Positions 9,141 to 24,433 of a stretch of DNA of 64,000 bases are shown piece after piece. The translations under genes were made by a program, and so were the position numbers. Source of the stretch: an uncultured Caldilineales bacterium. GTDB taxonomy: Bacteria; Chloroflexota; Anaerolineae; JAAEKA01. How positions within the stretch are numbered: position 1 is the first letter of the stretch; the number at the start of each line of letters is the position of its first letter. Location of the stretch: contig CALESQ010000079.1 of assembly GCA_937907455.1 (NCBI GenBank), positions 1 to 64,000 on the forward strand, read 5' to 3'. The notes under the pieces were generated by a model that saw only the letters and a program-made list of their open reading frames with translations, searched no databases and had not been told where the DNA came from.

Positions 9141-9172
9141 GAAACGGCCTCATTTCCTCGCAGGAGCTTGTT

Positions 9173-9451
9173 ATGGTCAATGCCATTGTGCTGTTTAACG
9201 TCGAGCGCGGCCACGTCAACGCGGTGGCGCAGCAGTTGGTGGCGCTGGACGGCGTCACCGAGGTGTTTTCGGTGGCGGGACGCTACGATCTGGTGGCGGT
9301 GTTGCGCACGGCCAGCAACGAGCAGATCGCCGACCTGGTGACGCGCGCCATCATGCAGATCGAACACATCACGCACACGGAGACGCTGCTGGCCTTCCGC
9401 ATGTTTTCAAAGTACGACCTGGAGGCGATGTTCGCGGTGGGGATGGAGTGA
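9173..9451 (+). CDS. AsnC/Lrp-type ligand-binding (RAM) domain protein; stand-alone small regulator.
   Basis: 92 aa. VLFNVERGHVNAVAQQLVALDGVTEVFSVAGRYDLVAVLRT is typical of the AsnC C-terminal (RAM) domain. Confidence 0.65.
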   Translation: MVNAIVLFNVERGHVNAVAQQLVALDGVTEVFSVAGRYDLVAVLRTASNEQIADLVTRAIMQIEHITHTETLLAFRMFSKYDLEAMFAVGME

Positions 9452-9455
9452 GGAG

Positions 9456-9570
9456 GAGACAAGTACACAAGGTGACAGGTAGACAGGTAGACAGGTAGAC
9501 AAGTACACAAGGTGAGAAGGGCGGAGGCTTTGTTTCCTTGTCTACTTATTCCGTGTCTGCTTGTCTGCTC
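9456..9570. repeat. Intergenic micro-repeat. GACAAGTACACAAGGTGA flanks (CAGGTAGA)x3, followed by an inverted partial copy (cttgtctacttattccgtgtctgcttgtctgc).
   Basis: Direct reading of 9456-9570, which lies between the convergent AsnC-type and IMPase genes. Confidence 0.8.
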
Positions 9571-10349
9571 GTTATCCTCTGCAACAGCGGCTCGATCAGC
9601 GCGGCGCGCGCGGCGAGGATCGGTTCGGGCGCGGCGCGGCCATCCAACAGCGGGGTGATCTCCACGGCTGCGCCGGAGAGGTAGCGCAGTTCGATGCCCA
9701 AAGCACTCAGCAGCGGCCAAACACCAGCCAAATCCCATAGCCTGACCGGACGCAGCAGCGCGCCCACCGCCGCGCCGCGGCCTACATAGACCAGATGCGC
9801 CGCCGCGCTGCCCAAACTACGCAGCCGGGGGTAGTCAATAGTGTAAAGCTGATGCCAGTTCGACGGCACAGCCAGAAACGCGGTGCGATCCTCTAACCCG
9901 AGGGCGGGCGGCAGCAGACGGCGGCCATTCAGAAACGCACCGCGGGGGTGGCCGGTGTACAACTCGCCCACGGCAGGCAGATAAAACGCACCAGCGACGG
10001 GAACGCCCTGCTGCAAAATCCCCACGGAGATACCCCACACCGGCAAACCACTCAAGTAAGCGCGGCTGCCGTCCAGCGGATCGAGCACCCAGGTGACCGC
10101 GGGATCGTCGCCGCCCAGGTTGCCCTCCTCGGCCAGAATGCGCTCGGCGGGGAAACGGCTGCGGATGCGCGCAGCCAGCAACGCCTCAATCTGCTCATCC
10201 ACCGCGCTCACCGGCGTGTGATCGGCTTTGTCGCGCACGGCAAGATCGGCGCGACGCGCAGCCAGTGCCATGCGCCCGGCCTGCCTGAGCGTCGGCGTGA
10301 TCCAACGCAACAGCCCGCGGACAGGGAGGGACAAAGCGTTTGTTGGCAT
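9546..10349 (-). CDS. Inositol monophosphatase family protein (SuhB/CysQ-like phosphatase).
   Basis: WVLDPLDGS (compare W.IDPIDGT) and WDLAGVWPLL (compare WD.AAG). Its start lies 2 nt downstream of the stop of the AAA-wHTH gene. Confidence 0.8.
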   Translation of the reverse strand: MPTNALSLPVRGLLRWITPTLRQAGRMALAARRADLAVRDKADHTPVSAVDEQIEALLAARIRSRFPAERILAEEGNLGGDDPAVTWVLDPLDGSRAYLSGLPVWGISVGILQQGVPVAGAFYLPAVGELYTGHPRGAFLNGRRLLPPALGLEDRTAFLAVPSNWHQLYTIDYPRLRSLGSAAAHLVYVGRGAAVGALLRPVRLWDLAGVWPLLSALGIELRYLSGAAVEITPLLDGRAAPEPILAARAALIEPLLQRITSRQADTE

Positions 10350-10351
10350 CG

Positions 10352-11713
10352 TCAGGAGACGGCGTTCTCTGGCGTGTCCACCAGCCGGTAGCCATGCCCG
10401 CGCACGGTGAGCAGGTAGCGCGGTTGCGTCGCATCCGGCTCGATGGCGCGGCGCAGGTGGCGCATCAGCGAGTCAATGCGGTTTTCGCTGCCGGCCTTGT
10501 CAGGATCAAGCGCCTCGGTGGGGTATAACGCGGCCAAAATCTCATCACGGCTGCACACCTGGCCCAGCCGACGATAGAGCAGGCGCAGCAAGTCGTATTC
10601 CAGCTTGCTGAGATCGGCCAGGCGGCGGCCCTCCACCCACACCACGGCCGCGGCCTCGTCCAGCCACAGCCCGCGGTGGCTCAGCGTGCCTTTCTCCAGC
10701 ACGAAATGATGAAACACCGGCGAGAAAAAGGTCGGCTGCTCGCTGTTCTCGTCGCGAATTAAGCCTTTCAGCGCCAGCAATTCACGCGGGGTGTACGGCG
10801 CGCCGATGCCCTGGGCGAGGCGGCTCAAGGCCAGGCGCTCATCCTCGGCCAGGCCCTGCCACAGCTTGCGGTATTCTTCTGCGACCGCGGGCTGAGCCAG
10901 CGCCCAATGCACCTGCGCGTCTGCATCCGCGGGTAACTCGGTGCGCGCCAGCACATCAGACAACGCCACCAGCGAACCGGGGTGTCCACCGCTGAGACGC
11001 AGCATGGCGGCGATTTCGGCCTCGCTCCAGGCGCGGCCACGGCGCGCGGCGATCTGTGCAACCACCTGCCGCGCGTCCACATCGTTGTAGGGCTTCAAGC
11101 CAAGCACCGAGCGCGACAGCAACTCGTAGAAGCCTTCACTGTCCGCGCGGTCACGCAGGCGGCCCGGATGATCGCGCAGCATCAGCACAAAGCACACCTG
11201 ATAGCGGTCGTTGTCGCGCAGGGCGCGCAGATTGGCCAGCGCGGCCGCGGGCAAGGTGCGGTAGCTCTCGTCGAACTCGTCGAGGATGAAGCACAGGCGC
11301 AAACCATGCTCACGGCACAGGGTGCGCGTGGCCAGCTCCAAATGACGTTGCGCCAGCAGCGCGTCGCGGCGGGTAATTGCCTCTGCACGCAGCGCGTTCA
11401 GCCATTCGCGCGCGTCCGCGGGGACGCGGTTGCCCACGCCCTCGATCAGCGCGGTGAGCAGCAGCTCGTACAGGCCCCAGTCGCTTTTCTCGGCCAGGCG
11501 GTTGCAGTCCGCCAGCAGCAGCGCGGTGTGGAGCGCAGCCTCGCTCAGGTAGTGCTGCTGCACCTCCGCGCGCTGGAGGAAGAGCAGCAGCCGCGACTTG
11601 CCCATGCTGGCCGAGCCGATGATGGCCGCGGACTCGCCGCCGCGCAGGAGGTCAAAGAGGGGCGCGGCGATTTCGGCACGAAAAGAAAGGGGGTAATCGG
11701 TTAAAACAAGCAT
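10352..11713 (-). CDS. N-terminal AAA/STAND-like P-loop ATPase fused to a C-terminal OmpR/PhoB-type winged-helix DNA-binding domain.
   Basis: Walker A GSASMGKSRLL and Walker B LCFILDEFDE. C-terminus LSKLEYDLLRLLYRRLGQVCSRDEILAALYP...RIDSLMRHLRRAIEP...YLLTVRGHGYRL (trans_reg_C). Confidence 0.75.
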   Translation of the reverse strand: MLVLTDYPLSFRAEIAAPLFDLLRGGESAAIIGSASMGKSRLLLFLQRAEVQQHYLSEAALHTALLLADCNRLAEKSDWGLYELLLTALIEGVGNRVPADAREWLNALRAEAITRRDALLAQRHLELATRTLCREHGLRLCFILDEFDESYRTLPAAALANLRALRDNDRYQVCFVLMLRDHPGRLRDRADSEGFYELLSRSVLGLKPYNDVDARQVVAQIAARRGRAWSEAEIAAMLRLSGGHPGSLVALSDVLARTELPADADAQVHWALAQPAVAEEYRKLWQGLAEDERLALSRLAQGIGAPYTPRELLALKGLIRDENSEQPTFFSPVFHHFVLEKGTLSHRGLWLDEAAAVVWVEGRRLADLSKLEYDLLRLLYRRLGQVCSRDEILAALYPTEALDPDKAGSENRIDSLMRHLRRAIEPDATQPRYLLTVRGHGYRLVDTPENAVS

Positions 11714-11715
11714 GT

Positions 11716-13938
11716 TCAGGCAGGGGTTAGGTTAGGATCAGAAGGAGTTGATGCTTTTAGCAATTTTTCCCACGACAACTCAATGCCTTCCGGATCGGCA
11801 AAATCAACATAAACCAGATAGGCAATGCGCAGGGGAAGCTCAACTTTTTCCTTGCGCAAGGGGACAAAGCGCCGTTCTCGATTAGCAGAATCAAGTGTCT
11901 GTAACATCAAATTCTCGAATTCCGTCCAACCGCTATCCATGTAATTTTGTGTGAGTATAGCCACAGTTTTTCGGCTTGTCTTAATTGCACGTTCCATTTC
12001 AATGACACTAGGCGCGCCTGGCTCAAAGTCAATGAAGTCAATACAAACCTTGAGATTGGCAGCTTTCAACCGCGGCAATAACTCAGCAACCACCCAGGCG
12101 CGATCCTTTGAACTGTAAGAAATAAAAACATCATACTCAAAGGACGAAGTTGTCGAGACAGAAGGTGATGATTGAGATGGAAATGATGGCTTCTTTGGAT
12201 TGCTCCAACTCTTGGGGGGCCAAGCATCATTTTGCCCGCTGTCCAGACTGCGACAAGTTGTGCCGCCTAACAGAGCGCATCGCTCATCCAGTGGAAGATC
12301 ACCCTCTTCTATTGGGTTATCTTCCTTCCGCATAGGCAAGGTTAAACGAAATGCTGTATTCAGCAGCAACGCCCAACGGTAAGGCCTGGTATCATCACCG
12401 GTTGTTGCTTTAGCGTGTTTACGGATGGTTTTAATGGCCTCAAAAGCCTTCACTGTATCGGTGCTAGCTCCTGAAGGCAAATCTGGCTCCCAAAATTTTA
12501 CTGGGTCTGACGAAAGCAGGTTAACGACAAGATGCAGAAACTCTGAAACCTTCGTTGCAAGTACCCGAAGAAGACGGGTGAGTATATCTATTTCTAACTC
12601 AACCCAATCGGCAAAAATCGGACCTGGGCCGGAGCGTTCGAAATCAATCAACCAAAGCTGCTTGGTTGTTTCATCTATAAAACAGTTGTCGGCCTGGAGA
12701 TCGCCGTGGATAACACACATTGGAATTGACTTGGGGCTATAGTCTTGGGAAACTATATAACCATTGGTTTCGCTGGCTTGTTCTAAAGCAATTCGTTGTT
12801 TTAGCCACGTAATTGGATCTGGGAGTTTTAGTTGCTCGCTAAACCAGGCTTGAAACTCAGGCGATACCTTTTCTAAAGCGCCTGCTGATGCACCGAAACG
12901 GTTGTGCCAGTTGTTGCCCCATAATGCTCTGTAAGCTTGATAAAGAGTTACTTTATTGTCGCCTTTTTCCTTTTTTGCATCATAGTAACTCTTCCACCCG
13001 GATCCGAAGTTGTTTAATACAGTGCAGATGTCTTCTGCCTGCCTTTCTTGATAATAGATGCGAAACAGAGCACCCACATCCCCAACATTCAAATAGCGAG
13101 TACCTTGGACATCCCATAAAACAGCTTCTGATTTCAGAGTAGCATAATACCTCAATGGAAATTTATCTTCCACGTACTTCTTATAACGAGTTGATTCATC
13201 ACGCGTCGGATCTGTTCGCACGATCTTGACAATATCGGAAATTGCGTTCCCATCTCGGTTAATCCGAATAACTACTGAACGCGGACGAACGCTACCTGCA
13301 CTGGGAAAACGATCATCGCTTTCTAAAGAATGGACTGCTAGCTGCTGGGCATCAGGATATAATTTCCAGAGGAGATCTTCTATTTCATCCACAGGAACAT
13401 CATCTTGATCAGGGAAAAGGCGTTTAATTAACTGTTCCGAGCCACCAATACTAAATGGCCATTTAATAAGCTCTTTTGTAAAGCGCCCCCAGTACTGGAG
13501 CTTTACTTCTTCAATAGTTTTCTCAAGCTCCTCAGGACCACTTTCCTTACCAACAAAGTCATAAGCGCGTAGGGGTACATCAGGTGGTGATTTGATAGCT
13601 GCACGCACGGTATCTTTGTCACCGTATCCGCTCACAATAATAGACACTGTAGGAGCGAGATGAGAAACAAGTTCCAAGCCTGTCCGATCAGTGGGATCAC
13701 CATCGCTTCTGAGCCGCATATCCACAAGAGCAATATGACATCGGTAATCATGCGCCTTTTTGATAGCGTCATCCCAAAGCGCCTGAAACAGATTGTCAGC
13801 GTCTTCGGGCGCTTCAGCCGCGTACGCTTCGTAACCCCAATCAGCAAGATTTTTGAGATGATCTTGTCGCCATTGCGGATCGTTCTCCACCACCAGAACA
13901 CGCGGCAGGTTCTCTTTACCCTTAGTATTGTCACTCAT
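11716..13938 (-). CDS. Three-domain protein: response-regulator receiver (REC), protein-kinase-like (APH/choline-kinase-type) phosphotransferase domain, and a C-terminal TIR domain.
   Basis: REC: RVLVVENDPQ...HIALVDMRL...VSIIVSGYG...AYDFVGK. Kinase-like: IHGDLQADNCFID (HGDLhxxN catalytic loop) and LWLIDFERSG (DFG/IDWE equivalent). TIR: YDVFISYSSKD (beta-A), DFEPG (BB-loop P-G) and SGWTEFENLM (the W-x-x-x-E glutamate used by NADase TIRs). Confidence 0.8.
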   Translation of the reverse strand: MSDNTKGKENLPRVLVVENDPQWRQDHLKNLADWGYEAYAAEAPEDADNLFQALWDDAIKKAHDYRCHIALVDMRLRSDGDPTDRTGLELVSHLAPTVSIIVSGYGDKDTVRAAIKSPPDVPLRAYDFVGKESGPEELEKTIEEVKLQYWGRFTKELIKWPFSIGGSEQLIKRLFPDQDDVPVDEIEDLLWKLYPDAQQLAVHSLESDDRFPSAGSVRPRSVVIRINRDGNAISDIVKIVRTDPTRDESTRYKKYVEDKFPLRYYATLKSEAVLWDVQGTRYLNVGDVGALFRIYYQERQAEDICTVLNNFGSGWKSYYDAKKEKGDNKVTLYQAYRALWGNNWHNRFGASAGALEKVSPEFQAWFSEQLKLPDPITWLKQRIALEQASETNGYIVSQDYSPKSIPMCVIHGDLQADNCFIDETTKQLWLIDFERSGPGPIFADWVELEIDILTRLLRVLATKVSEFLHLVVNLLSSDPVKFWEPDLPSGASTDTVKAFEAIKTIRKHAKATTGDDTRPYRWALLLNTAFRLTLPMRKEDNPIEEGDLPLDERCALLGGTTCRSLDSGQNDAWPPKSWSNPKKPSFPSQSSPSVSTTSSFEYDVFISYSSKDRAWVVAELLPRLKAANLKVCIDFIDFEPGAPSVIEMERAIKTSRKTVAILTQNYMDSGWTEFENLMLQTLDSANRERRFVPLRKEKVELPLRIAYLVYVDFADPEGIELSWEKLLKASTPSDPNLTPA

Positions 13939-16900
13939 GATTTCGCTCCTGAATTACTTGGCTTAGATGGCAGGCGGATAGCGAACAAAGCCCCTTGACC
14001 TTCAACGGCTGGGTAGAGATGGATGCGCCCGTTCATTGTTTCGATCAATGATTGGGCAATCAGTAAGCCAAAACCACTGTTTTGCTGGGTGTCGTCATTC
14101 TTTTTGGTCGAAAAGGGTCCGCGCAAAAGGTGTCGCCGCGCTTCAAAATCAAGACCAGGGCCGTTGTCCTGAATTTGCAGTTCCACTTGCTCAGAGGAAA
14201 GACGGTGGACGCGCAACGTGATTTGCTTAACAAGGGTTGTCGCCAGCGCTTCGGCTGCATTGCGCAATAGATGGCGTACAGCGCGCCAGGTTTGTTCTTT
14301 GTAGGCATAAACGACATGATCTTCATCGTCGGCAAAGGTTATCTTTACGTCGGAAGCGTTCGTGATGCGCCAGTGACGCACTCGGGGTTCGAGGAATTCT
14401 TTCAAAAAAAATCCGACCGGATCATTTCGTTCTATGTGCGCGTCACGCACAGTGTCTGCCAATTGCCCTGCGCGTCCGTCAATCTCTTTAGCCCAATCCA
14501 CTTTTTGATCTGCGGTAGCCCTGGTATCTGTTTGCAGCCAGCCCGCACGATTGCGAATATAGCCCACCTCGCTGTTGATGTCATGAGCAATATCAGCCGC
14601 CCAGGCCATCGCGCCGGCCACTGAAACGCGACTCTGTGCCAATGCAGCATGGCCTAAGCGGTCAAGCGCCAAAGCAACTTGTTTGGCTGCCATTTCAAAA
14701 AGTCTCTCGTCGTCTTCACCAAAAGCATTCGGTGTGTCACTCTTGATCACCAAGACCCCGATCAGCTTATCGTTGCTGCCCAATAAGCCAGCGCATAGCT
14801 CAGACTGTGTGTTTGAGTTGACTTCAACATATATGCCCTTGTACTTCTCGTCATGAACGTTTTTGACGTTTTCTATGATGATTTTCTTCTCGTTAAGGGA
14901 ACGTCGGGCTACCTCGCAGGTGATCCCTTCGCCGTCAAGGGGTAAACGGACACGGTGCTGATATTCAGGTATTGTAGGCTGATAAAATTCCCTTGCCACC
15001 TTGGGAAGCTCTAACACATCCTCGCGATCCTCGTAGAGCATAATATAAGGCGTTGCTGTAGGATCTTTGCGGCTAAACTCCTCTTTTAAGACGTTTAATA
15101 CGCCGCGCAAAACAGTGTCAAGGTCCAGGCTGGCTCCTGCGGCGGTGGCAACCCTCAAGGCAGTCTCAAATCGTTGCTGTCGCTGCTGTGCCAATTCCAG
15201 CGTTTGCGCATTGTGGATGGCGGTGGCAGCAGCGTCGGCAAAGGCGGTGAACAAGGCCCGCTCAGTAGCCAAAAACTCATGACGTTTGCGATAATTTAAG
15301 AATAATGCTCCAATTGCAGCAGATTTGGTACCGAAGCGCAAGGAAAGTGCCGCAGTTGAGAAAATGCCCTCCTCGCGCGTAAAGTCTCCATCTAAGACGG
15401 AGCCGTTCTCTATAACCGAAGCAAACAAAGGATTAGGGCGCTCCATCACGGTTTTCACCAGGTGATCACTGGTTCTGCTGCCACGATGTTTTTCGTTTTG
15501 TACATTCCATTGCGGCCCTGAAATCAGCTTGTCTTTGTCTTCTGCATCGGTATACCACATGGTGATGCAATCCAGTTCCGGCGCCACCTTGCGGGCATAC
15601 GCGACGATGGCGTCGAGGGTTGTGGCTAAGTCCATAGATGCAGACACGGTAGCAATCGTCTGCGCCATGGTTTGCAGATCACTGCGGGTGCGTACGCTAT
15701 CCAACGCCAACTCGCAGGCCCGGCCCAAGCGCTGTAAGCTCTCTTCATCCAGAGTGCTGAAGGATGCTTTCTTGTCTGATTGGCGGACGGCCAATGCGCC
15801 GATGGCTTTTTCACCGGTGCGCAGCAGAACAATTAAATCATTCTTGTTGCGGTGTAAAGGCTTGTTTTGCTCCAAAACCTGGCCAATCGCTCCAGCATGG
15901 ATTTCGCTAGACAGCGAGCGCAGCTCGCCTTTTGGGGTGAGATGATAATCGCGGCGCATTTGCTTGCGCTGTTCCCCTTCTCCTTCCCAGTGAGCTATAG
16001 CCAGAGTAGTTTTGACTCGGTGATCGAACAGGTCTGCAGTATTCGATAGAATGGAGCGTCTTAACTTTTTCTCATCCACATCGGAGGCCAACGCTTGAGC
16101 TTGAATGTTCGCGATCAGTTGCATGCTAAGCCGTTGCCGTTCCATGCCATGCTCAGCTTGGACGCGCCCATGTTGTTCCTGCCCGAATTCACGCGCATAG
16201 CTAATGACCGTAGCGCCAATTGTCGCCAGATGTTCGGAGCGGGCAATGTCCTCTTCGGTGAAAGATCGCGGTGTACGATAGTCAAAATAAATCACACCCA
16301 GCGGTTCTGCTGTCAAGGCTTTGCGCATGGGAACGGCTATCATTGCTTTGACACCTTCACGCTTGACAAATGAATGTTCAGCGAGGCGCTTGCCCCCAAA
16401 CTTTAGCGTAGAATGATCAACGTCAGCTACCACCAGATTACCAGATTGCAAGACCGAAAAGGTGACGCCTTGTTGGCGCGGTTTGTTTTTAGAGATGAAA
16501 TCATCACCGTGGTTCAAGCCACGATGGACAACGTTGTTCAAGTCATAAGCGCCTGTTTCAGCCAGATAGGGATAAATCACAATACTGTTCGCTGACATGA
16601 TGGAATCAGCGGATTGGTCACACAGGTCTTGCAAGCTCTCTTTTAAGGGTCGCTGGGCTGCCCGCTCGGTGATGCGCCGGTTGAGTGCGAGGATGTTTTC
16701 ATACTTTTCGCCAAGCAGGCGACTTCGGTTTCTTTCCTGTGCCTGCTGCCATTCAGTCATGGCCTGCGCCAGCAATTCTTCCACCTTGCTCAGATCGCCA
16801 TGACGAAGGGGCTCGCCGTCAAAAGCGTTGTCTACCCACAAAACCCCGATGACTTTGCCACCCTGTTTGACCGGCAGCAAGGCGCAGTCGTAGTCTGTTG

Positions 16901-18809
16901 CCTTGTCCAGTAAATCAGATGGGTGGGGCAATGAACTTTCCGGCAGCGCATTTTCCAATGCCGAAGAAGCCATGGTTCTGCGTGCTGGACTACGCAAAAT
17001 ATCAACCTGCTCTGAGCTAAGTCGCCACTCAACGACTGCCTGTTGCAGAGGGGTTGGATCAGACAAGGCCAGATGAGGAGCGGCAAAGTAGTCTTGCAGG
17101 CTTTTTTTGCCATCGCGATCCTTTTCCCAGGACCCCCGCGCCTCTTTGCGCGTCCAGTGGCCAATGGCCATGCGTCCCATCCAGAGGCTATCTGCCACCG
17201 GCGATTGCAAAAACAGCAAGGCGCGGTTGAAACTGTTGCCCTCGCGATGGGTAATCGTAGTCAACACGGCATGCCAAAAGCCTTCTTCTGACTCCTCGAT
17301 CAAACGCGGCAGCACGGCCCGGAGTTGCTTGGCTGCTTCATCCTGGCGCTTCTTCTCTTCTTCGCGCTCGTGCTGATAGGCCGCATAAATCGCACCGGCA
17401 ATTTGATCAGCAATTTTGCCGAGTAGCTGCTGATGGCTAGGCGTATAGGATATTTTTTCATCATAACTTTGAACAGCTAGCACACCAATGACTTTTCCAC
17501 TATCTAATCGCAGTGGCACGCCCAGCCAACAAGCAGCCGGCCTGCCAAAATGGTCAATGCCATTATCTTGACAGAATTTTATCGCATCATGAAAAAGCAG
17601 AGATTGGTTTTTGGATATGAGATAACCACTCACTGCACTACCTGGTTTATGCCAGTGGCGATCTTGTAACACGTTGTCTTCATAGTGTCTTCGATAATCA
17701 AGATAGCCTGTTTCCAAATCGGACAAAACAACCATAAAGTTAGATACATCCAGCTTGACACGTTTTCCCACCAGGCGGCGTATCTCGTCCAGCAGTTCAT
17801 CGAGATTGCTGGTAGCGGCTTTGGTAATGATCTGCCTGCCAATGGTACTCAACAACTCCGCTTCCCGCGCCTGCTCTTGCGTTTGCTCATGCAGCCGCGC
17901 CCGCTCTAACGCCGCTGCGGCCTGATTGCCGAACAAAGCTAATACCGCCCCGATTTGATTGCGCTGTTGTGCGCTAAAAGCAGAATCCAGTTCATCGTTG
18001 TCCAGAGTGAGTGTACCAACTTTGTGGTTTCCGCTCGACAGCGGGATTTTTACCCATTCTCCGACCGGTGGTTGCATCCCTTGGGCTGCATAAAATTCAT
18101 CAGTTCCACCCTTACCTGCCTCACGCGCCTTGAAGATCATCGGCTTGCCAGCTTCAATTGCTTGCTTGGAATACATTAACTCCTTCAAAGGTGCGCGCAA
18201 ACCTGCAAACCCTTTCAAGCGAGCGGTGCCTGCCTGACTAACACCTACCATTTCAGGATCACCCTGTGCTTCCTGGCCTTGTTCTACCAAGAGGCGCAAG
18301 CGCGCGCGCTTAAAATCAAAGTGTAGAGCGCCCTGAACAATGGCATCGGCTACAGCTTGCACGGTCGAGGCGCTCTGCATGGCGGTGGTGACCTCGGTCA
18401 AAATTTGCAGCCAGTTGCGTTCATTGCGAATACCACGGCTTTTTTCAATGGACTTAAGCACGTAGACGAGTTCGCGCGTGTCAAAAGGCTTGGTCAGATA
18501 GCGATACGCCCCCAAATCAAAGGCAGCAATCCCCGCCTCAACCTCGTTGTAACCAGTCAGGATGATGGCATCGCTTTCCGGGCTGAGATCGCGCAGTTGC
18601 CCCATCAAGACAACACCGTTAACGTCCGACCCTTCCAGGCGTTGATCCAAAACAAAAGCAGCAAAAGGCGAGGCAGCCTCCTTCACCGCCAAACGCGCCT
18701 GTGCTGCGCTGTTGACGGCAACCACATCAAATCCTTTTTCGAGTCGCCTCAGTTGCTCACCGAGCATGTGAGCAAGTACTTCGTCGTCGTCTACAATTAA
18801 AATACGCAT
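13935..18809 (-). CDS. Giant hybrid sensor histidine kinase: N-terminal REC, at least 6 tandem GAF domains, HisKA and HATPase_c (about 1,625 aa).
   Basis: REC: MRILIVDDDEV...AFVLDQRLEG. GAF cores, for example ACWLGVPLRLDSGKVIGVLAVQS, LGVIYFDY, IGALAVRQS and LIGVLVIKS. H-box ADIAHDINSEV. HATPase_c: QDNGPGLDF...GFGLLIAQSLIETMNGRI. The start was placed at the internal ATG at 18809 (MRILIV), giving a 16-nt gap to the upstream gene. Confidence 0.8.
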   Translation of the reverse strand: MRILIVDDDEVLAHMLGEQLRRLEKGFDVVAVNSAAQARLAVKEAASPFAAFVLDQRLEGSDVNGVVLMGQLRDLSPESDAIILTGYNEVEAGIAAFDLGAYRYLTKPFDTRELVYVLKSIEKSRGIRNERNWLQILTEVTTAMQSASTVQAVADAIVQGALHFDFKRARLRLLVEQGQEAQGDPEMVGVSQAGTARLKGFAGLRAPLKELMYSKQAIEAGKPMIFKAREAGKGGTDEFYAAQGMQPPVGEWVKIPLSSGNHKVGTLTLDNDELDSAFSAQQRNQIGAVLALFGNQAAAALERARLHEQTQEQAREAELLSTIGRQIITKAATSNLDELLDEIRRLVGKRVKLDVSNFMVVLSDLETGYLDYRRHYEDNVLQDRHWHKPGSAVSGYLISKNQSLLFHDAIKFCQDNGIDHFGRPAACWLGVPLRLDSGKVIGVLAVQSYDEKISYTPSHQQLLGKIADQIAGAIYAAYQHEREEEKKRQDEAAKQLRAVLPRLIEESEEGFWHAVLTTITHREGNSFNRALLFLQSPVADSLWMGRMAIGHWTRKEARGSWEKDRDGKKSLQDYFAAPHLALSDPTPLQQAVVEWRLSSEQVDILRSPARRTMASSALENALPESSLPHPSDLLDKATDYDCALLPVKQGGKVIGVLWVDNAFDGEPLRHGDLSKVEELLAQAMTEWQQAQERNRSRLLGEKYENILALNRRITERAAQRPLKESLQDLCDQSADSIMSANSIVIYPYLAETGAYDLNNVVHRGLNHGDDFISKNKPRQQGVTFSVLQSGNLVVADVDHSTLKFGGKRLAEHSFVKREGVKAMIAVPMRKALTAEPLGVIYFDYRTPRSFTEEDIARSEHLATIGATVISYAREFGQEQHGRVQAEHGMERQRLSMQLIANIQAQALASDVDEKKLRRSILSNTADLFDHRVKTTLAIAHWEGEGEQRKQMRRDYHLTPKGELRSLSSEIHAGAIGQVLEQNKPLHRNKNDLIVLLRTGEKAIGALAVRQSDKKASFSTLDEESLQRLGRACELALDSVRTRSDLQTMAQTIATVSASMDLATTLDAIVAYARKVAPELDCITMWYTDAEDKDKLISGPQWNVQNEKHRGSRTSDHLVKTVMERPNPLFASVIENGSVLDGDFTREEGIFSTAALSLRFGTKSAAIGALFLNYRKRHEFLATERALFTAFADAAATAIHNAQTLELAQQRQQRFETALRVATAAGASLDLDTVLRGVLNVLKEEFSRKDPTATPYIMLYEDREDVLELPKVAREFYQPTIPEYQHRVRLPLDGEGITCEVARRSLNEKKIIIENVKNVHDEKYKGIYVEVNSNTQSELCAGLLGSNDKLIGVLVIKSDTPNAFGEDDERLFEMAAKQVALALDRLGHAALAQSRVSVAGAMAWAADIAHDINSEVGYIRNRAGWLQTDTRATADQKVDWAKEIDGRAGQLADTVRDAHIERNDPVGFFLKEFLEPRVRHWRITNASDVKITFADDEDHVVYAYKEQTWRAVRHLLRNAAEALATTLVKQITLRVHRLSSEQVELQIQDNGPGLDFEARRHLLRGPFSTKKNDDTQQNSGFGLLIAQSLIETMNGRIHLYPAVEGQGALFAIRLPSKPSNSGAKS

Positions 18810-18825
18810 CGTTTTTCCCTTCCCG

Positions 18826-21039
18826 TCAGATACGATAGGGCAGCTCCACCGCCATGGTGGTGCCCCAAAGGGTATGGCTGGACTCGATAAATACACGACC
18901 GCCCTGAGATTCGATCAGGCTGCGGGCAATGAACAACCCCAGACCGCTTCCATCTTCTCTGGTGGTATAGTCCATCTCAAAAATTCGTTCCCACAAGCGC
19001 TGATGAATGCCCGGGCCGTCATCCTGCACATATAAGCGCAGGATGTTTTTTCCTTCATGTTTGGTTTGTAGCATTTGAATTTCAACCCGGCCGCCACGCT
19101 CCGGTCTCGTTAACGCGATTTGCTGGATGGCATTTTGTACTACATTCACCAACACCTGTTGCAGGTAGGTAATCATCGCCCGCGTGAAATAAAGTTTGGG
19201 AGCTGGGCGGAGAATTAATTCAACTTTGTTTTCTTTGGCCGTTTCGCTCAGCAGGCTCACCACTTCATGGGCAACTTCGTCCAGACGAATTAATTCTTCC
19301 ACCCCTGAGCGTGTTATTTTGCCGAAAGAGTGCATCGTATGGGCCATGCTTTGTGTTTGTTGCGTCAGCTTTTGCAGTTCTTCTTTTGTCCGTGCTGTTT
19401 CCCTGATAACTTCCTCAGGAGAAGTAAGGGCACATTGCTCTACCCGCTTGCAGCCCTCTTCGAGATCCCGCAAGATAAGATTGAGTGGGCTAATACGTCC
19501 GCTGATTTCATGAATCACGGTGCGGCTCAACTGCCCCAGCAAAGCAACCCGTTGTAAATCCGCCGTTTGTTTAATCAATTGCTGGCGTTCCAGCCAGGAA
19601 GCAATGCGCGCCGCGCTTCCTTCGGCGCTGGCGATCAGCCCATTGGGGATGAAAGCGAGCGGGTGACTGAAAAACAGGAACAATGCGTAGCGTTTGCGCA
19701 GATGAGCCGGCACCGGCACGCCGCAGCACGCGCTGAAATCAAGCAAAGGCAGCACGTGTCTTAAGCGTCCGGCGGTTTGCTGCTGAACATGGTTAGCAGT
19801 AAAAACAGTCTGCTCTTCAGCCACGTTGCGTATCGGACTGTAGATTAGCTCCGGCCACGCCGTGTTGCGCAAAGAAACAGGCCCTTTGTGTTCAAACACC
19901 TTGATCTGCGCCTGATCTGTATCCAGCTCAAAGAGCACTGCCTTGTCAGCTTGCGCAGCACTGATAGCACGCAGCAGCATAACAGCCAGTTCGCTTTGTT
20001 CAGCCTTGGGTACGGTAAATACAGATTGTTCTAATGTCATACGGGTAGGCGAACTGGAAGGTGCTAGTGATTGGTCGGGCTTTTCCAGCAACATTTCAGC
20101 TAAATGGTTAGGCAGTAAAGGCTTGATCAAGAGCGATACTCCCTCTTTGCGCAGGGGCGTTAGCTCCTTGTCACGGCGTTCTGCCCTTCCCCAATCGGTC
20201 ATCAACACGCAGCGCAGCTCAGGCCATTGGAATCTGATCTGCCGGGCTGCGGCAATGCCATCCATGCCGGGCAGGCCAATATCCATCAACACCAAATCCG
20301 CCGATTGTGCTTCAAGAAAGGCAAGAGCCTCCTCTGCCTTCTCAGCCACATAAACGACACGTTGACCGACATTACGTAGCCAGTTCGCCAGCGACAGACG
20401 TTGATCCTCCTCATCTTCTACCACTACGATAGATTTAGGAACGCTGCTCAAGAGCTGTTGAATAGCGGTATTGTTAAGTCGGCTGGGAGACAATCCCTGT
20501 ACTGCACTCTTTGTCACAGTTTCAGGGTAGTGCCCGGCGCTATTCCATCGGTATTTTTCCAGTTGGCGCATGCTCAAAGCAACCCGTCTGCGCTTGCGGT
20601 CAACCGCGTCTATCGTTACTTTGACCAGATCACCGGGCCAGAAAACATCACCTATTGCCTCTTGTTTCCAATCGGGAAGATGAGAGATATGAACCAACCC
20701 AGAAAAGTCCTTTTCGAGCTTAACAAATACCCCATACGGCATGATGCCATCAACAACGCCACTAACTAAAGCGCCTACTGGAAAGCCATCAGCAGTGACA
20801 TTCCACAAATAAGCTTCAGCCAGCCAAATTTCCTCACTGTGTTGGCCCACAGCTTCGATTGGCTGTACAACGATTTCCAGCGAGTCTCCAGGCTTGTAAC
20901 GAGGAATTCTGGGGAACTTTGCCAGGATTTCAGGATTTGTGTCCCGCACCAACCCCTGCCGCCCATCCGGCAGCGCGACAATCAACCCGGCAGGGGTTGC
21001 GCGCACAACACGGGCATGGAGGGGCTGCGAGTAAAGCAT
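18826..21039 (-). CDS. Hybrid sensor histidine kinase with two N-terminal S1 RNA-binding domains, then REC, HisKA and HATPase_c.
   Basis: S1 domain: GALVSGVVDGIMPYGVFVKLEKDFSGLVHISHL...GDLVKVTIDAVDRKRRRVALSMRQL. REC: KSIVVVEDEEDQRL...DLVLMDIGLPGMDG. H-box VIHEISGRISPL. HATPase_c: YVQDDGPGIH...GSGLGLFIARSLIESQGGRV. Confidence 0.75.
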   Translation of the reverse strand: MLYSQPLHARVVRATPAGLIVALPDGRQGLVRDTNPEILAKFPRIPRYKPGDSLEIVVQPIEAVGQHSEEIWLAEAYLWNVTADGFPVGALVSGVVDGIMPYGVFVKLEKDFSGLVHISHLPDWKQEAIGDVFWPGDLVKVTIDAVDRKRRRVALSMRQLEKYRWNSAGHYPETVTKSAVQGLSPSRLNNTAIQQLLSSVPKSIVVVEDEEDQRLSLANWLRNVGQRVVYVAEKAEEALAFLEAQSADLVLMDIGLPGMDGIAAARQIRFQWPELRCVLMTDWGRAERRDKELTPLRKEGVSLLIKPLLPNHLAEMLLEKPDQSLAPSSSPTRMTLEQSVFTVPKAEQSELAVMLLRAISAAQADKAVLFELDTDQAQIKVFEHKGPVSLRNTAWPELIYSPIRNVAEEQTVFTANHVQQQTAGRLRHVLPLLDFSACCGVPVPAHLRKRYALFLFFSHPLAFIPNGLIASAEGSAARIASWLERQQLIKQTADLQRVALLGQLSRTVIHEISGRISPLNLILRDLEEGCKRVEQCALTSPEEVIRETARTKEELQKLTQQTQSMAHTMHSFGKITRSGVEELIRLDEVAHEVVSLLSETAKENKVELILRPAPKLYFTRAMITYLQQVLVNVVQNAIQQIALTRPERGGRVEIQMLQTKHEGKNILRLYVQDDGPGIHQRLWERIFEMDYTTREDGSGLGLFIARSLIESQGGRVFIESSHTLWGTTMAVELPYRI

Positions 21040-21157
21040 GGTCGGCAGCTTTCGTGAACAGAAAACAGCATACAGACGAGGACGATAACGCGGGGAAAGT
21101 TCACTCGCTATTATAACACAGCCACACTGCCCTGCTGCTATCAGATTTCTGGCAAAA

Positions 21158-21262
21158 TCCTGACAAAGCTGTCAAAGATTTCTGACATGCGCCTTTTGTC
21201 AGAAATTGCAGCCAGTTGTCAGCCGCCAGACAGCCTGGTGTCAGGTAGGAATTCCTGACCTG
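21158..21262. promoter_or_regulatory. Array of TGTCAG/CTGACA inverted repeats (candidate operator sites) in the promoter region of the S1-HK / TIR operon.
   Basis: CTGACAaagcTGTCA (21160-21174); TTCTGACAtgcgccttTTGTCAGAA (21180-21204); TTGTCAGccgcCAGACA (21216-21235); GGTGTCAGGtaggaattCCTGACC (21238-21260). Also a direct repeat AGATTTCTG x2. Confidence 0.55.
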
Positions 21263-21342: not shown

Positions 21343-21567
21343 ATGGAAATCGCACTCGTGTTGCTGTTCATCATCGGTCTGATGGGTGTCTACATTCTTT
21401 ACCTGACCGTGCGCCTGAGCCTGTCGAGCCGCACCACGATGGTAGTGATGGCCCCAACTCCTGCTGGCGAGCAAGGTAACGGCTGCGGCGTGGCCGTGTT
21501 CCTGATCCTGACCATCATTGCAGCCATCATCCTCACCCTGGTCTTTGGACCGATCTTTCTCGGATAA
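21343..21567 (+). CDS. Small two-TM membrane protein (hypothetical).
   Basis: RBS AAAGGAG; two hydrophobic helices (LVLLFIIGLMGVYILYL and VFLILTIIAAIILTLVFG). Confidence 0.5.
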   Translation: MEIALVLLFIIGLMGVYILYLTVRLSLSSRTTMVVMAPTPAGEQGNGCGVAVFLILTIIAAIILTLVFGPIFLG

Positions 21568-21620
21568 ACTACCCCCACTCTATAATCACTCCGCAACCCC
21601 ATTTGCAAAGGAGTATCCCC

Positions 21621-21983
21621 ATGAACACCCTCACCGCCAAACTCTACGAGAAGAAACTGTTGGAAGAAAAAGCTTGGTGCACTGACATGATCGAACACCT
21701 GGCTGACCATGCCACCATGGACCCCCAGAACAACTACGCCGTAACAATGGCTCGGCACAAGCTGGTCAAGATCGAACGGGCTTTACGCCGGGTTGCTGCC
21801 GGCACCTATGATCAGTGCGACCAATGCGGCGACAAGATCGAGGCGGAGCGCCTTGAAATCCTGCTTGACAGCGAACACCATAGCTGCGCCCGTTGCGCCA
21901 CTGCCATTCGTCCCACCAACAAGCGAATGCCGGTGCGCCAACCAGCCTACGGCTACGGCCAGATGGCCCTGGCGCAGGCATAG
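21621..21983 (+). CDS. DksA/TraR-family C4 zinc-finger protein.
   Basis: CDQCGDKIEAERL...HHSCARCA four-Cys finger after an N-terminal coiled coil. RBS AAAGGAGT upstream of the ATG at 21621. Confidence 0.65.
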   Translation: MNTLTAKLYEKKLLEEKAWCTDMIEHLADHATMDPQNNYAVTMARHKLVKIERALRRVAAGTYDQCDQCGDKIEAERLEILLDSEHHSCARCATAIRPTNKRMPVRQPAYGYGQMALAQA

Positions 21984-22035
21984 CGCTAAACCCTCACCCT
22001 ACACGCGTTTCTGTTGAGGCACAGGAGGCAAGCCC

Positions 22036-22359
22036 ATGAACGTTCCCAACCTGCGCAACTCTGACACCGCCGGACTAGCCGCCATTCGTCGCTGGCAGCC
22101 ATGCGCCATAATCGCTGCTGATATGGCTGCAACCACCGGCGACTCGGTCCAGCCAATCTATTTTAACATCAGTTATGGCCTTGCTGCCCAAGCCCATTAC
22201 CCCTGGGCAGCCCGGATGTGGGAACTGAAAACTCCTCCCAAGCGTCCGGCAATTGACAAAATCGTACTCTCTGCAGAGGCTCTCACCTGCCTGCAGGATG
22301 TGCTAGATCTGCTAGAGGCAACGCTCATCCCATCAACCGACTATGTACTTATACAATAA
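22036..22359 (+). CDS. Hypothetical protein.
   Basis: ORF with RBS ACAGGAGG; followed by a terminator. Confidence 0.4.
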   Translation: MNVPNLRNSDTAGLAAIRRWQPCAIIAADMAATTGDSVQPIYFNISYGLAAQAHYPWAARMWELKTPPKRPAIDKIVLSAEALTCLQDVLDLLEATLIPSTDYVLIQ

Positions 22360-22377
22360 GTATGACCAACCGCACTG

Positions 22378-22412
22378 AACGCTGTTCTGGCCAACCAGAG
22401 CAGCGTTTTTGA
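22378..22412 (+). terminator. Rho-independent terminator.
   Basis: aacgctgttctgg cc aa ccagagcagcgtt followed by TTTTT. Confidence 0.6.
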
Positions 22413-22536
22413 TTCTCATCTCCGAACTCTACACACACGCTCTGCGCGGCGTTCACCGCGTCCCTGTGATTTGACAAGTTGCCCTACTGTAAATAGAATT
22501 AGAACATATTTTCTAATTCCCGAGAAACAATCAACC

Positions 22537-22797
22537 ATGGGTCAACTCGTCTGGCATCGGCACGACATCGAGAATATCCTGCGCGGCGTGGAGCTGGCAG
22601 GCCTGCAAACCGCGGGTCAGATGAATGACGCAGAGCTGGCCGGCTATCGCCGCGGCTTCCTGGCCGCGTTGGCGGCCACGGCTACCAGCTTCGGCATTGA
22701 GGTGAGACCCTTGCCTCTCGCCGCCCCCGCAGAAAGCCAACTCCCCCCCCTTACCCCCGCGCATCACCGCTATCCAAACCGAACGGGAGAGCGCTAA
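22537..22797 (+). CDS. Hypothetical small protein (weak call).
   Basis: ORF from the internal ATG MGQLVWHR. No recognisable domain. Confidence 0.3.
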   Translation: MGQLVWHRHDIENILRGVELAGLQTAGQMNDAELAGYRRGFLAALAATATSFGIEVRPLPLAAPAESQLPPLTPAHHRYPNRTGER

Positions 22798-24189
22798 CTT
22801 AGCGAATCAGGGCCTGCACCGCGGTTGCCCATGTTCCTCAGCAATTCCATCATCAGCAAACGCGTTACCATGTCCATTTCCTGACCGGTGGCGCTGGTGG
22901 CGGTATTACCGCTGCGCTGAATCTGCTCAATCATACTGAGCATCAGCAGATCGTTAGGGCTGGTATGGTAACTTCGCGCTTCACGCATAGCATCTGACAT
23001 TTTTTTTAGCGCTTCGCCGCGACCTTCAGCGACGTGAAAATCTATATCGCGCTGCAAATCAGCCTGCTCCCAGGCGAATTTTTGATCTTTATCAGCTACC
23101 CAGCGTTGCATAAGTCGCTGCGCGGCCAGGTCGGGGATGGTCACCGCGCCGATGCCGGTAATTGTCACTGTTACGCCCAAAAATTCATCGGTTACTTTGT
23201 TCACCAAATTACCCAGCTTCTTCTTGAATTCCGTTCGTCCTTCGCCATTCAACTTCAGAAACGTTTCCAGATCATAATCGGCAATGGCGTTGCGCGCTTC
23301 GCGTTCGGTAATGGCACGTACCGCGGTCCCCCAACTATTACCAGATGGCGACCAAACCTTGTTTGTGAGAAACATGTCCAGGTTCTTTTTCAGCTCCTGC
23401 GCAGAAATTCCCTTAAACTGTGGGGGGTTCACCTTGTGAAACACCGCCAGATTTAACTCTTCAATCACCAGAGGATCGCTGGTAGAGGCATTTCTCACCA
23501 CCACGGCTTCTCCTCTGCCAAAGAGCGGCACCACCATACAGATGCGCTCCATAGCTCCTAGCCAATGACTGCCTTCTTCTATAAAACGGGCGATACGGCC
23601 ACTTCGCTCGACAATCACCACATGATCGCGCTGCACTTCGATGGCTCCCGGCCCGGTGAGCACGGGATACGGAGGCGGAGCGGCCCGCAGCGTGACGATC
23701 TCGCCGTTGCGTATCTCCCATTCCGCCGGCACCCAGCCCAGGGCGCGCCGTAAGCCCAGCGTAAATGCATCGAACTTGCTCACACCCATCACTTGCGAGT
23801 CCGGCAGCAGGCGCAACAGCCTCACCGGCCCCAGCAGCAACGCGAACAACACCAGGGTGCCACCCATGCCCAGCAGCAAACCCCAGAAGTTTTGCAGCAG
23901 CGCTGTACCTGCAAAGACATGGATAAAGCGCGCCGCCGTGCCTTCGCTGAATACCTCATGCACACGGCCAAGTCCCCAGCGAAACAGCCAGGCAAGGGCC
24001 AATGCCTGCATAACAAACAGCCCACCATAGATGGCCGGGCGCTCTCGCCCCGGCGACCCGCGCAATAAAAGGAACATACACACGGCCAATGCCGCCGGCA
24101 CCAGGAAAATAATCCAGGGCCAGCCCAACTGAAGCGACCAAAAACCAGTAGCCACCATCACAAGGAGGATTAACAACGAACGCACCATG
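22794..24189 (-). CDS. Polytopic membrane protein (4 N-terminal TM helices) with a C-terminal soluble domain of possible SPFH/band-7 type (uncertain).
   Basis: N-terminal hydrophobic helices; C-terminal alpha-helical Lys/Glu-rich region. No diagnostic motif. Confidence 0.4.
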
Positions 24190-24433
24190 ACGCACCTCCA
24201 CTTGCCACCACCAAAAACCAAACCCGAAAGACGACAGCCACACAGTGCAAAATTTAGCAGCGTTGCACAGTCGCCGGCCCACTCCGAGCTTCCAACTCCA
24301 CTGTCTGGGCAATTTCTGCCGCAAGGGCAAAAACCCCCAAGTTAACAAGAAACAAAGCGTCACTATTGTCACACAAACAGATAACAAAAACCATGATTTA
24401 AATCATATTAGCCTTGCCAAAATCAGGGCGGCC

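Follow-up and report, generated by a model that had tools for sequence, protein, structure and literature searches.

The window analyzed here is a 64,000-nucleotide stretch of contig CALESQ010000079.1 (assembly GCA_937907455.1) from an uncultured Caldilineales bacterium of the phylum Chloroflexota. Our subject is a minus-strand gene coding for a 453-residue protein, hereafter the target, in which a STAND-type nucleotide-binding module is joined to a DNA-binding winged helix-turn-helix (wHTH) domain. We consider it together with the genes that precede it, two of them for histidine kinases (HKs) and one, termed the partner gene, for a protein with a receiver (REC) domain, an APH-like kinase and a TIR domain. 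The genes at the locus are:

18826-21039, minus strand: operon gene 1, with an S1 (RNA-binding) domain, a REC domain and a histidine kinase (S1-REC-HK), from Pfam and synteny
13935-18896, minus strand: operon gene 2, a hybrid histidine kinase with a REC domain and five GAF domains (REC-GAF-HK), from Pfam and synteny
11716-13938, minus strand: the partner gene, 740 residues, REC, APH-like kinase (TCAD9) and TIR, the conserved upstream neighbor, with its HGDxxxxN and IDFE motifs intact
10352-11713, minus strand: the target gene, 453 residues, a NOD made of a nucleotide-binding domain, a helical domain and a winged helix (residues 1-345), then an OmpR/PhoB-type wHTH (residues ~346-450)
9546-10349, minus strand: an inositol-monophosphatase-family (IMPase) gene, starting 2 nt after the target stop codon

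The target open reading frame (ORF) starts with ATG, and since the upstream ORF ends in a stop codon followed by AC and then this ATG, the spacer between the two is 2 nt, exactly as the initial annotation of this DNA had it. We recovered 232 homologues of the target at 44-99% identity, all of about 450 residues (the best two at 99% and 84%), and the gene is therefore real. Those with a source name are labeled as the Chloroflexota lineages Anaerolineae, Caldilineaceae, Chloroflexales and Thermoflexales. When the NOD part was compared exhaustively with 1.84 billion cluster representatives by phmmer, 986 relatives were obtained at E-values up to 1e-3. One clade of the family (loci L033-L058, 32-42% identity) has a NOD protein of 345-390 residues that ends right after the winged-helix domain, next to a partner that is a bare REC-TCAD9 protein of about 550 residues; the window belongs to the second clade, whose NOD bears the wHTH. 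The diagnostic elements of the target are:

11594-11617, minus strand: Walker A motif GSASMGKS, residues 33-40, with G, G, K and S invariant in both clade alignments
11267-11293, minus strand: Walker B motif CFILDEFDE, residues 141-149, with D145, E146 and D148 invariant
10976-10993, minus strand: GxP motif SGGHPG in the helical domain, residues 241-246, with S, G, H and G invariant across both clades
10355-10678, minus strand: C-terminal OmpR/PhoB-type winged helix (Trans_reg_C), from a Pfam match

A GxP motif in the helical domain is typical of STAND NODs. Its proline is kept in at least 90% of sequences over both clades, with G, H, P and G invariant inside the wHTH clade, and GSASMGKS (residues 33-40), ILDEFDE (residues 143-149) and SGGHPG are unvarying in 22 homologues of 44-83% identity. 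The AlphaFold2 model of the target (predicted local distance difference test 89.3) shows a strand/helix nucleotide-binding domain, a helical middle and a C-terminal winged helix; its N-terminal 345 residues are confidently modeled as an NB-ARC/CED-4/Orc-like NOD, and by structure comparison the closest folds are NLR NB-ARC, CED-4 and Apaf-1. Judged by the STAND definition of Leipe et al. 2004, the target is a tripartite NOD, that is, a P-loop nucleotide-binding domain with Walker A and B followed by a helical GxP domain and a winged helix. Pfam matches in the N-terminal half (AAA_16, nSTAND1, AAA_22) are weak and all below cut-off, with nSTAND1 (PF20703) scoring 25.4 bits for the full target and 26.3 bits for the NOD alone against a cut-off of 27.1; the relatives P0328 and P0355 exceed this cut-off at 28.5 and 31.4 bits. 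No Pfam model scores above threshold on the target NOD, and its family is without a solved structure.

In the C-terminal domain, Trans_reg_C (PF00486) matches residues 366-444 with 61 bits (cut-off 26.2; E 1.2e-16), PDB profiles of VicR, YycF and PhoB match at 1e-12 to 1e-17, and the fold has the N-terminal beta-sheet, three helices and C-terminal hairpin of an OmpR/PhoB winged helix. A PDB sequence search with the target matched the wHTH part alone, and an NCBIfam scan found nothing except the wHTH. The chain ends with this domain: there is no C-terminal repeat sensor (TPR, WD40, LRR or SUPR) in the target, and Pfam and the AlphaFold2 model gave no GerE/LuxR match and no repeat domain. Because the Walker A, Walker B and GxP motifs are invariant, we conclude that the target is a minimal STAND/NB-ARC-like nucleotide switch fused directly to an OmpR/PhoB DNA-binding domain. 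The initial annotation, which had called it a P-loop ATPase with a C-terminal OmpR/PhoB winged helix and likened it to STAND-type switches, was right on both counts.

The same reading had taken the upstream gene for a REC-kinase-TIR protein, which Pfam confirms with TIR_2 at E 1.4e-22, TCAD9 at 58.4 bits (cut-off 40) and APH at E 4e-6. The REC match is weak (22.5 bits), yet its phospho-acceptor aspartate and its lysine are invariant in the family alignment, and these together with the kinase residues (the VVK lysine, HGDxxxxN and IDFE) are invariant or nearly so. The SxWxxxE-type motif contains the catalytic glutamate of NADase-active TIRs, and by sequence reading the partner TIR keeps it as SGWTEFE. 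The nearest homologue of the partner, P0121 (54% identity), has a TIR domain that seems truncated or frameshifted after about 60 residues and may be a decayed effector.

To place this gene pair in its phyletic context, one genome per species was scanned, which gave 53 loci (designated by L numbers, as individual proteins are by P numbers). Fifty-one are labeled Chloroflexota; the other two, labeled Gemmatales and Nitrospirae, are probably mis-binned. With the window proteins as tblastn and hidden Markov model queries, the gene order S1-REC-HK, REC-GAF-HK, REC-TCAD9, NOD recurs almost everywhere. Of the 48 primary NOD genes whose upstream sequence spans 1.5 kb or more, 46 have a REC-TCAD9 gene immediately before them on the same strand, usually overlapping the NOD gene or within 20 nt of it. 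In the two exceptions, L014 and L036, the genes found upstream are an amidohydrolase gene and a Band_7 gene plus an unknown ORF. Downstream of NOD the loci have no conserved gene in common, which makes the target the final member of a four-gene operon, and synteny places this operon across the Chloroflexota, as a phylum-wide unit and not a local island. Co-occurrence with REC-kinase-TIR homologues, which the initial annotation had proposed as a check, therefore holds for the REC-kinase in 46 of 48 cases; the TIR is not constant, being one of many add-ons. Within the window, the S1-REC-HK ORF (ending at 18826) shares 71 nt with the REC-GAF-HK ORF, whose GTG start is listed at 18896 but whose true start is probably further downstream. 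Four of the loci (L016, L021, L025 and L029) carry a divergent second NOD of about 460 residues after the target orthologue.

Natural fusions join the products of these adjacent genes. Besides NOD and NOD-wHTH, Pfam scans identified TIR-NOD (P0277, P0230), Hanks kinase-NOD (P0328) and Hanks kinase-NOD-wHTH (P0374) architectures, the gene for the last lying directly behind a TCAD9 gene. Four cluster representatives of 872-877 residues (P0299, P0305, P0331 and P0375) are REC-X-NOD-wHTH proteins by length and NOD position, two of which (P0299 and P0305) were Pfam-scanned. In P0299, whose gene sits directly behind a GAF-HK gene, REC and X together correspond to a REC-TCAD9 module that has lost its catalytic motifs (hhalign probability 100%, E 9e-51). 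On the Rosetta-stone principle, such fusions argue that the two adjacent gene products of the window act as one unit, and also that the kinase-like module is at least partly structural, with a coupling role. P0230 (L061, 10001-11566), a solo TIR-NOD of the same NOD family, is encoded on the same 4.89-Mb contig as the canonical wHTH-less operon L055, with a TIR-WD40 protein 2 kb away.

The pairing has to be set against a sharp compositional break that the initial annotation, which also missed the phylum-wide four-gene operon, had passed over. GC content falls from ~0.67 to ~0.46 precisely at the boundary between the target and the TIR gene. GC at third codon positions (GC3) is 0.82 in the target and 0.76 in the IMPase gene, against 0.41 in the partner gene and 0.54 in each HK gene; most other long ORFs of the window lie at ~0.63-0.76. 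DNA similarity to the nearest relative, L008, is confined to 9162-11680, and the window shares 84% protein identity with L001 in the NOD but 35% in the partner. These figures would fit a purely coincidental neighborhood, in which the ATPase-wHTH and the IMPase form a native core, the low-GC cassette of REC-kinase-TIR and HK genes arrived by horizontal transfer, and the 2-nt spacing means nothing. We consider this very improbable. The adjacency in 46 of 48 cases extends across the phylum and includes clades free of any GC difference, the fusions join both gene products, and the candidate operator described below, located ahead of the cassette, has been kept along with the wHTH. The same kind of GC3 break recurs in L059 (0.85 against 0.47-0.60) and L001 (0.82 against 0.45-0.50). 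It thus belongs stably to the locus and is not the trace of a single recent insertion; it may reflect continuous cassette exchange or selection for rare codons. A recent island inserted beside an unrelated regulator, which the GC break might also suggest, was rejected on synteny and the fusions.

NOD and partner identities diverge between L006 and L007 (81% and 36%), stand at 69% and 73% between L001 and L003, and elsewhere co-vary (97/90, 87/93, 84/80). These incongruent identities, with the GC3 break and the partial DNA similarity, show that the upstream cassette has been replaced several times in the effector-bearing clade, where the comparison indicates that the regulator gene and the operator-promoter stay in place while the cassette is exchanged. 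The junction between partner and NOD behaves as an insertion hotspot: DDE transposases of insertion sequence (IS) elements lie exactly between the REC-TCAD9 and NOD genes in L030 (8030-9700) and L017 (8464-9369), and the same junction holds CHAT and NUDIX genes in L032 and Trypco2 in L063. At 14721-18494 of L063, which belongs to the L006 lineage, the operon has gained a second TCAD9 gene as well as Trypco2 ahead of the NOD-wHTH gene, which is followed by a toxin-antitoxin pair of the MNT (NTP_transf_2)/HEPN type and by another NOD paralogue that lacks the wHTH.

Among the 27 partners of the wHTH clade, 12 have an additional effector, either at the C-terminus or adjacent, compared with 0 of ~23 beside wHTH-less NODs among the sampled loci. 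The effectors are:

TIR: the window
metallophosphatase: L001
CHAT plus TIR: L003/L059
CHAT: L006, L007, L019, L024, L030 and L031
caspase: L012
trypsin: L026
separate CHAT and NUDIX genes: L032

Homologues of the TIR protein extend the list by a nucleoside phosphorylase (PNP_UDP_1) and the Pfam families PF13271 and PF19960. The constant partner is the REC-APH-like kinase (TCAD9), and the TIR is one of many interchangeable C-terminal add-ons.

This repertoire raises the possibility of an apoptosome- or resistosome-like scaffold, in which the NOD oligomerizes to cluster the proximity-activated effector of its partner and the wHTH is a DNA sensor or template, recognizing its own repeats or invader DNA, and not a transcription factor. 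The nearest folds, NLR NB-ARC, CED-4 and Apaf-1, suit such an assembly; established work has the partner-fused effectors all belonging to kinds that are activated by induced proximity; the TIR-NOD and kinase-NOD fusions place the effector N-terminally and the wHTH in the C-terminal 'sensor' slot; and effectors occur only beside wHTH-bearing NODs in the sample just given. About half of the wHTH-type operons nevertheless have no effector at all, the REC-pseudoTCAD9-NOD-wHTH fusion combines an input with a DNA-binding output and carries no effector, and the conserved repeats described below stand at a fixed distance from the -10 box of the operon itself, as expected of an operator. We hold the scaffold, the chief rival of the split-regulator reading given below, to be fairly unlikely, though the two are not mutually exclusive.

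Upstream of operon gene 1 the following elements were found:

21179-21205, no strand: perfect palindrome TTTCTGACA-N9-TGTCAGAAA, the TGTCAG palindrome of the initial annotation
21149-21175, minus strand: candidate operator, direct repeats TTGACAG / TTGTCAG / TTGCCAG with 9- and 11-nt phasing, from sequence conservation
21110-21118, minus strand: extended -10 box TGTTATAAT, lying 33 nt beyond the last repeat
21216-21244, plus strand: distal CTGACA(A) copies at 21244-21239 and 21222-21216, from a sequence scan

Read in the orientation of the operon, the palindrome (21205-21179) comes first, then the repeats (21175-21149) and then the -10 box (21118-21110). The TGTCAG sites that the initial annotation had noted upstream of the operon are real, with five exact copies inside 85 bp (21160-21244). 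The bare hexamer is not enriched over the 64-kb window (35 found, 31.5 expected); significance is limited to the longer motif and to the way the hexamer copies cluster locally. OmpR/PhoB domains bind phased direct repeats on the -35 side of promoters, and the best-kept element here is the phased direct-repeat array beside the extended -10 box, rather than the palindrome. The array and the box, a TGnTATAAT sequence, have the same layout in L059, L063 and L064 (the L059 box, TGGTATAAT, at equal spacing), and the array also aligns in L028, L012 and L010, with invariant TTG and CA columns, so that with the window the alignment covers seven genomes. Between the window and L059, DNA identity is 81% over the 68 bp of the repeats and the -10 stretch, flanked by DNA that cannot be aligned.

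A triple TTGNCA array with 10-11-nt phasing and a score of at least 12 of 15 is present in the window, L059, L010, L012 and L028, all of the wHTH type, and in 0 of 17 wHTH-less upstream regions (background P 0.02 per 350-nt window). Arrays scoring at least 13 occur in the whole window only in this intergenic region, one per strand. The 7-mer GTCAGAA/TTCTGAC likewise has 16 matches in 15 wHTH-type upstream regions, spread over 9 of the 15, where 908 kb of background sequence gives 0.03 per 350 nt, and none in 18 regions counted as wHTH-less, one of which (L024) is a 109-nt fragment of a wHTH-type locus. The second array consists of the distal CTGACA(A) copies read on the plus strand from 21196; it faces small divergent ORFs, which may therefore share the regulator. 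An imperfect palindrome, GGTCAGGAATTCCTACCTGACA, lies at 21237-21258, upstream of the repeat arrays.

Taken together, we favor, at a probability of about 0.6, a reading of the target as the output half of an NTP-gated, split response regulator that autoregulates its operon, with the REC input on one protein and the wHTH output on the other. The interpretation offered in the initial annotation is thereby supported, with refinements. This comparative proposal builds on what the analysis shows, namely the domain identities, the fold, the intact catalytic motifs, the conserved gene pairing, the fusions and the conserved operator-like repeats limited to wHTH operons. Phosphate would travel from the two hybrid kinases to the REC domain on the kinase-like partner, which, by contact or by phosphorylation, would free the NOD into an NTP-bound, self-associating state. 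The NOD oligomer would then line up its wHTH domains head-to-tail on the phased TTGnCAG repeats that abut the extended -10 promoter, and the operon, which the target probably switches on or off, would thereby regulate itself through its terminal gene. In the window, the same oligomer may cluster the partner TIR and so activate it. We infer the order of phosphotransfer, the contact between NOD and partner, oligomerization, DNA binding and the direction of regulation. The wHTH is the sole DNA-binding domain that Pfam detects in the window operon.

Several observations weigh against a split regulator. The GC3 break (0.41 against 0.82) could suggest separate histories for the two genes; DNA binding is not the ancestral function of the NOD, as the wHTH-less clade demonstrates; and the C-terminal slot of a canonical STAND protein holds a sensor, so that by analogy the wHTH could sense instead of regulate. 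Moreover, 6 of the 15 wHTH-type upstream regions lack the 7-mer, and the contrast between clades in the motif is confounded by phylogeny, such that another lineage-specific factor could bind the repeats. A scan for sigma-70 promoters and terminators over 8.8-21.5 kb gave no signal above shuffled sequences, and transcription units are therefore not definable from it.

A separate issue is what the operon is for. It may be a core phosphorelay of the Chloroflexota, serving for instance stress, light or developmental control, and no conflict or cell-death system; its output would be the APH-like kinase acting on a small molecule or protein, with the NOD as a nucleotide-dependent co-regulator, the wHTH as simple feedback and the death domains as later lineage-specific additions. 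The spread of the 53 loci over several Chloroflexota lineages, the syntenic position within the clade of the window, the absence of a recognizable effector from the wHTH-less clade and the invariant catalytic residues of the kinase all fit such a role, as does PADLOC-DB, in which the target matches 0 families and the TIR protein generic TIR models only. We nonetheless regard a housekeeping purpose as unlikely, since in many lineages the partner bears the classic conflict repertoire (TIR, CHAT, caspase, trypsin, PNP, metallophosphatase, Trypco2, NUDIX), and the cassette replacement and the IS or toxin-antitoxin insertions at the junction resemble a defense hotspot. This alternative is compatible with the split-regulator reading of the target and differs from it in biological purpose only.

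Among known systems, MalT and the LAL regulators are among the closest in working principle, since they too join a NOD/STAND ATPase to a C-terminal DNA-binding domain. They use a LuxR-type HTH and a SUPR/TPR sensor in about 900 residues, whereas the target has an OmpR/PhoB wHTH and no such sensor in 453 residues and presumably receives its input in trans from the REC-kinase partner. SARP/AfsR regulators share the OmpR-type wHTH, to which AfsR adds an ATPase of the NB-ARC type, and their binding sites are direct repeats near -35. Their wHTH is N-terminal and followed by a BTAD, while the target reverses this order, a description in the initial annotation that was correct, and has neither a BTAD match in Pfam nor a detected TPR. 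Lacking a BTAD, the target is not a SARP; furthermore, SARPs are actinobacterial, while the target family is restricted to Chloroflexota. OmpR/PhoB response regulators carry REC and wHTH in one chain. The target has a NOD in place of REC, with no REC match by Pfam in residues 1-345, and is therefore not a response regulator despite its OmpR-type DNA-binding domain; the REC of its system is on the adjacent kinase-like protein and is joined to a wHTH only in rare fusions such as P0299.

The NODs of NLRs and apoptosomes (NB-ARC, CED-4, Apaf-1) and of bacterial STAND defense proteins are the best structural matches and share the GxP motif. The likeness extends to family members with an N-terminal TIR or kinase and to the association with TIR, caspase and CHAT effectors. 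The target differs from them, and from the nSTAND1 clade (Kaur et al. 2021, PMC8195603), in having no LRR, WD40 or TPR sensor, and its effector resides on a separate, phosphorelay-controlled protein. With the NTP-dependent conflict systems described from multicellular bacteria (Kaur et al. 2020, PMC7159879), the operon shares the effector repertoire, TCAD9, a filamentous host phylum and a diversifying effector module. It differs in its core, which consists of two histidine kinases, a REC-kinase and a NOD in place of vWA-MoxR-VMAP; vWA, MoxR and VMAP genes are absent from the window operon and from more than 45 loci. PMC7159879 notes receiver domains that act without histidine kinases, whereas such kinases are present in the window operon. 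Searched by term, the two papers mention an APH-like kinase and nSTAND1 only generically and yield no description of the operon. We likewise found no description of it in the literature on TCAD9/nSTAND1, on AAA_16 with Trans_reg_C, or on Chloroflexi S1 histidine kinases with TIR or caspase domains.

Of the flanking genes, IMPase was considered as a component and rejected: its linkage is restricted to the narrow clade of the window (L001, L003, L005, L006 and L030), with no conserved downstream gene elsewhere. Its enzyme might undo the phosphorylation of a small molecule carried out by the APH-like kinase, or break down a nucleotide signal, but this is pure speculation. On the other side of the operon, small plus-strand ORFs at 21603-21983, 22036-22359 and 22471-22797 (within 21343-23369) diverge from the operon promoter, one of them with a weak zinc-ribbon signature. 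Beyond them, a Band_7-homologous stretch at 22821-23369 runs in the direction of the operon under a minus-strand ORF (22794-24221). Synteny of these flanking Band_7 and small-ORF genes extends over four genomes, with the arrangement of the window seen in L059, L063 and L064.

A more far-reaching and rather doubtful extension would make the locus a 'mini-resistosome' that is gated by a phosphorelay and anchored on DNA. The REC-kinase adaptor would be licensed by two sensor kinases, of which one has an RNA-binding S1 domain; ATP-driven oligomerization of the sensor-less NOD would fire the interchangeable death domain of the adaptor (TIR, CHAT, caspase, trypsin, metallophosphatase or PNP); the wHTH would nucleate assembly on the phased repeats of its own promoter; and the regulator gene and operator would serve as recombination anchors for the exchange of kinase/effector cassettes among Chloroflexota. 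Were this true, a bacterial immune or cell-death locus would be organized as a variable-cassette locus.

Bacterial NLR-like ATPases, and likewise TIR, caspase and CHAT effectors, have mostly been treated as self-contained defense genes. Here, a sensor-less NOD is proposed to be wired into a two-component phosphorelay with a transcription-factor output, and is paired phylum-wide with a receiver-kinase onto which swappable death domains dock. Should the split-regulator model hold, it supplies a concrete predicted operator (TTGnCAG x3) and protein pair, and would represent a new response-regulator design in which the REC and DNA-binding domains reside on separate proteins coupled by an NTP switch. 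It would also offer a tractable case of a housekeeping signaling operon turned into a cell-death or immunity module in filamentous bacteria.

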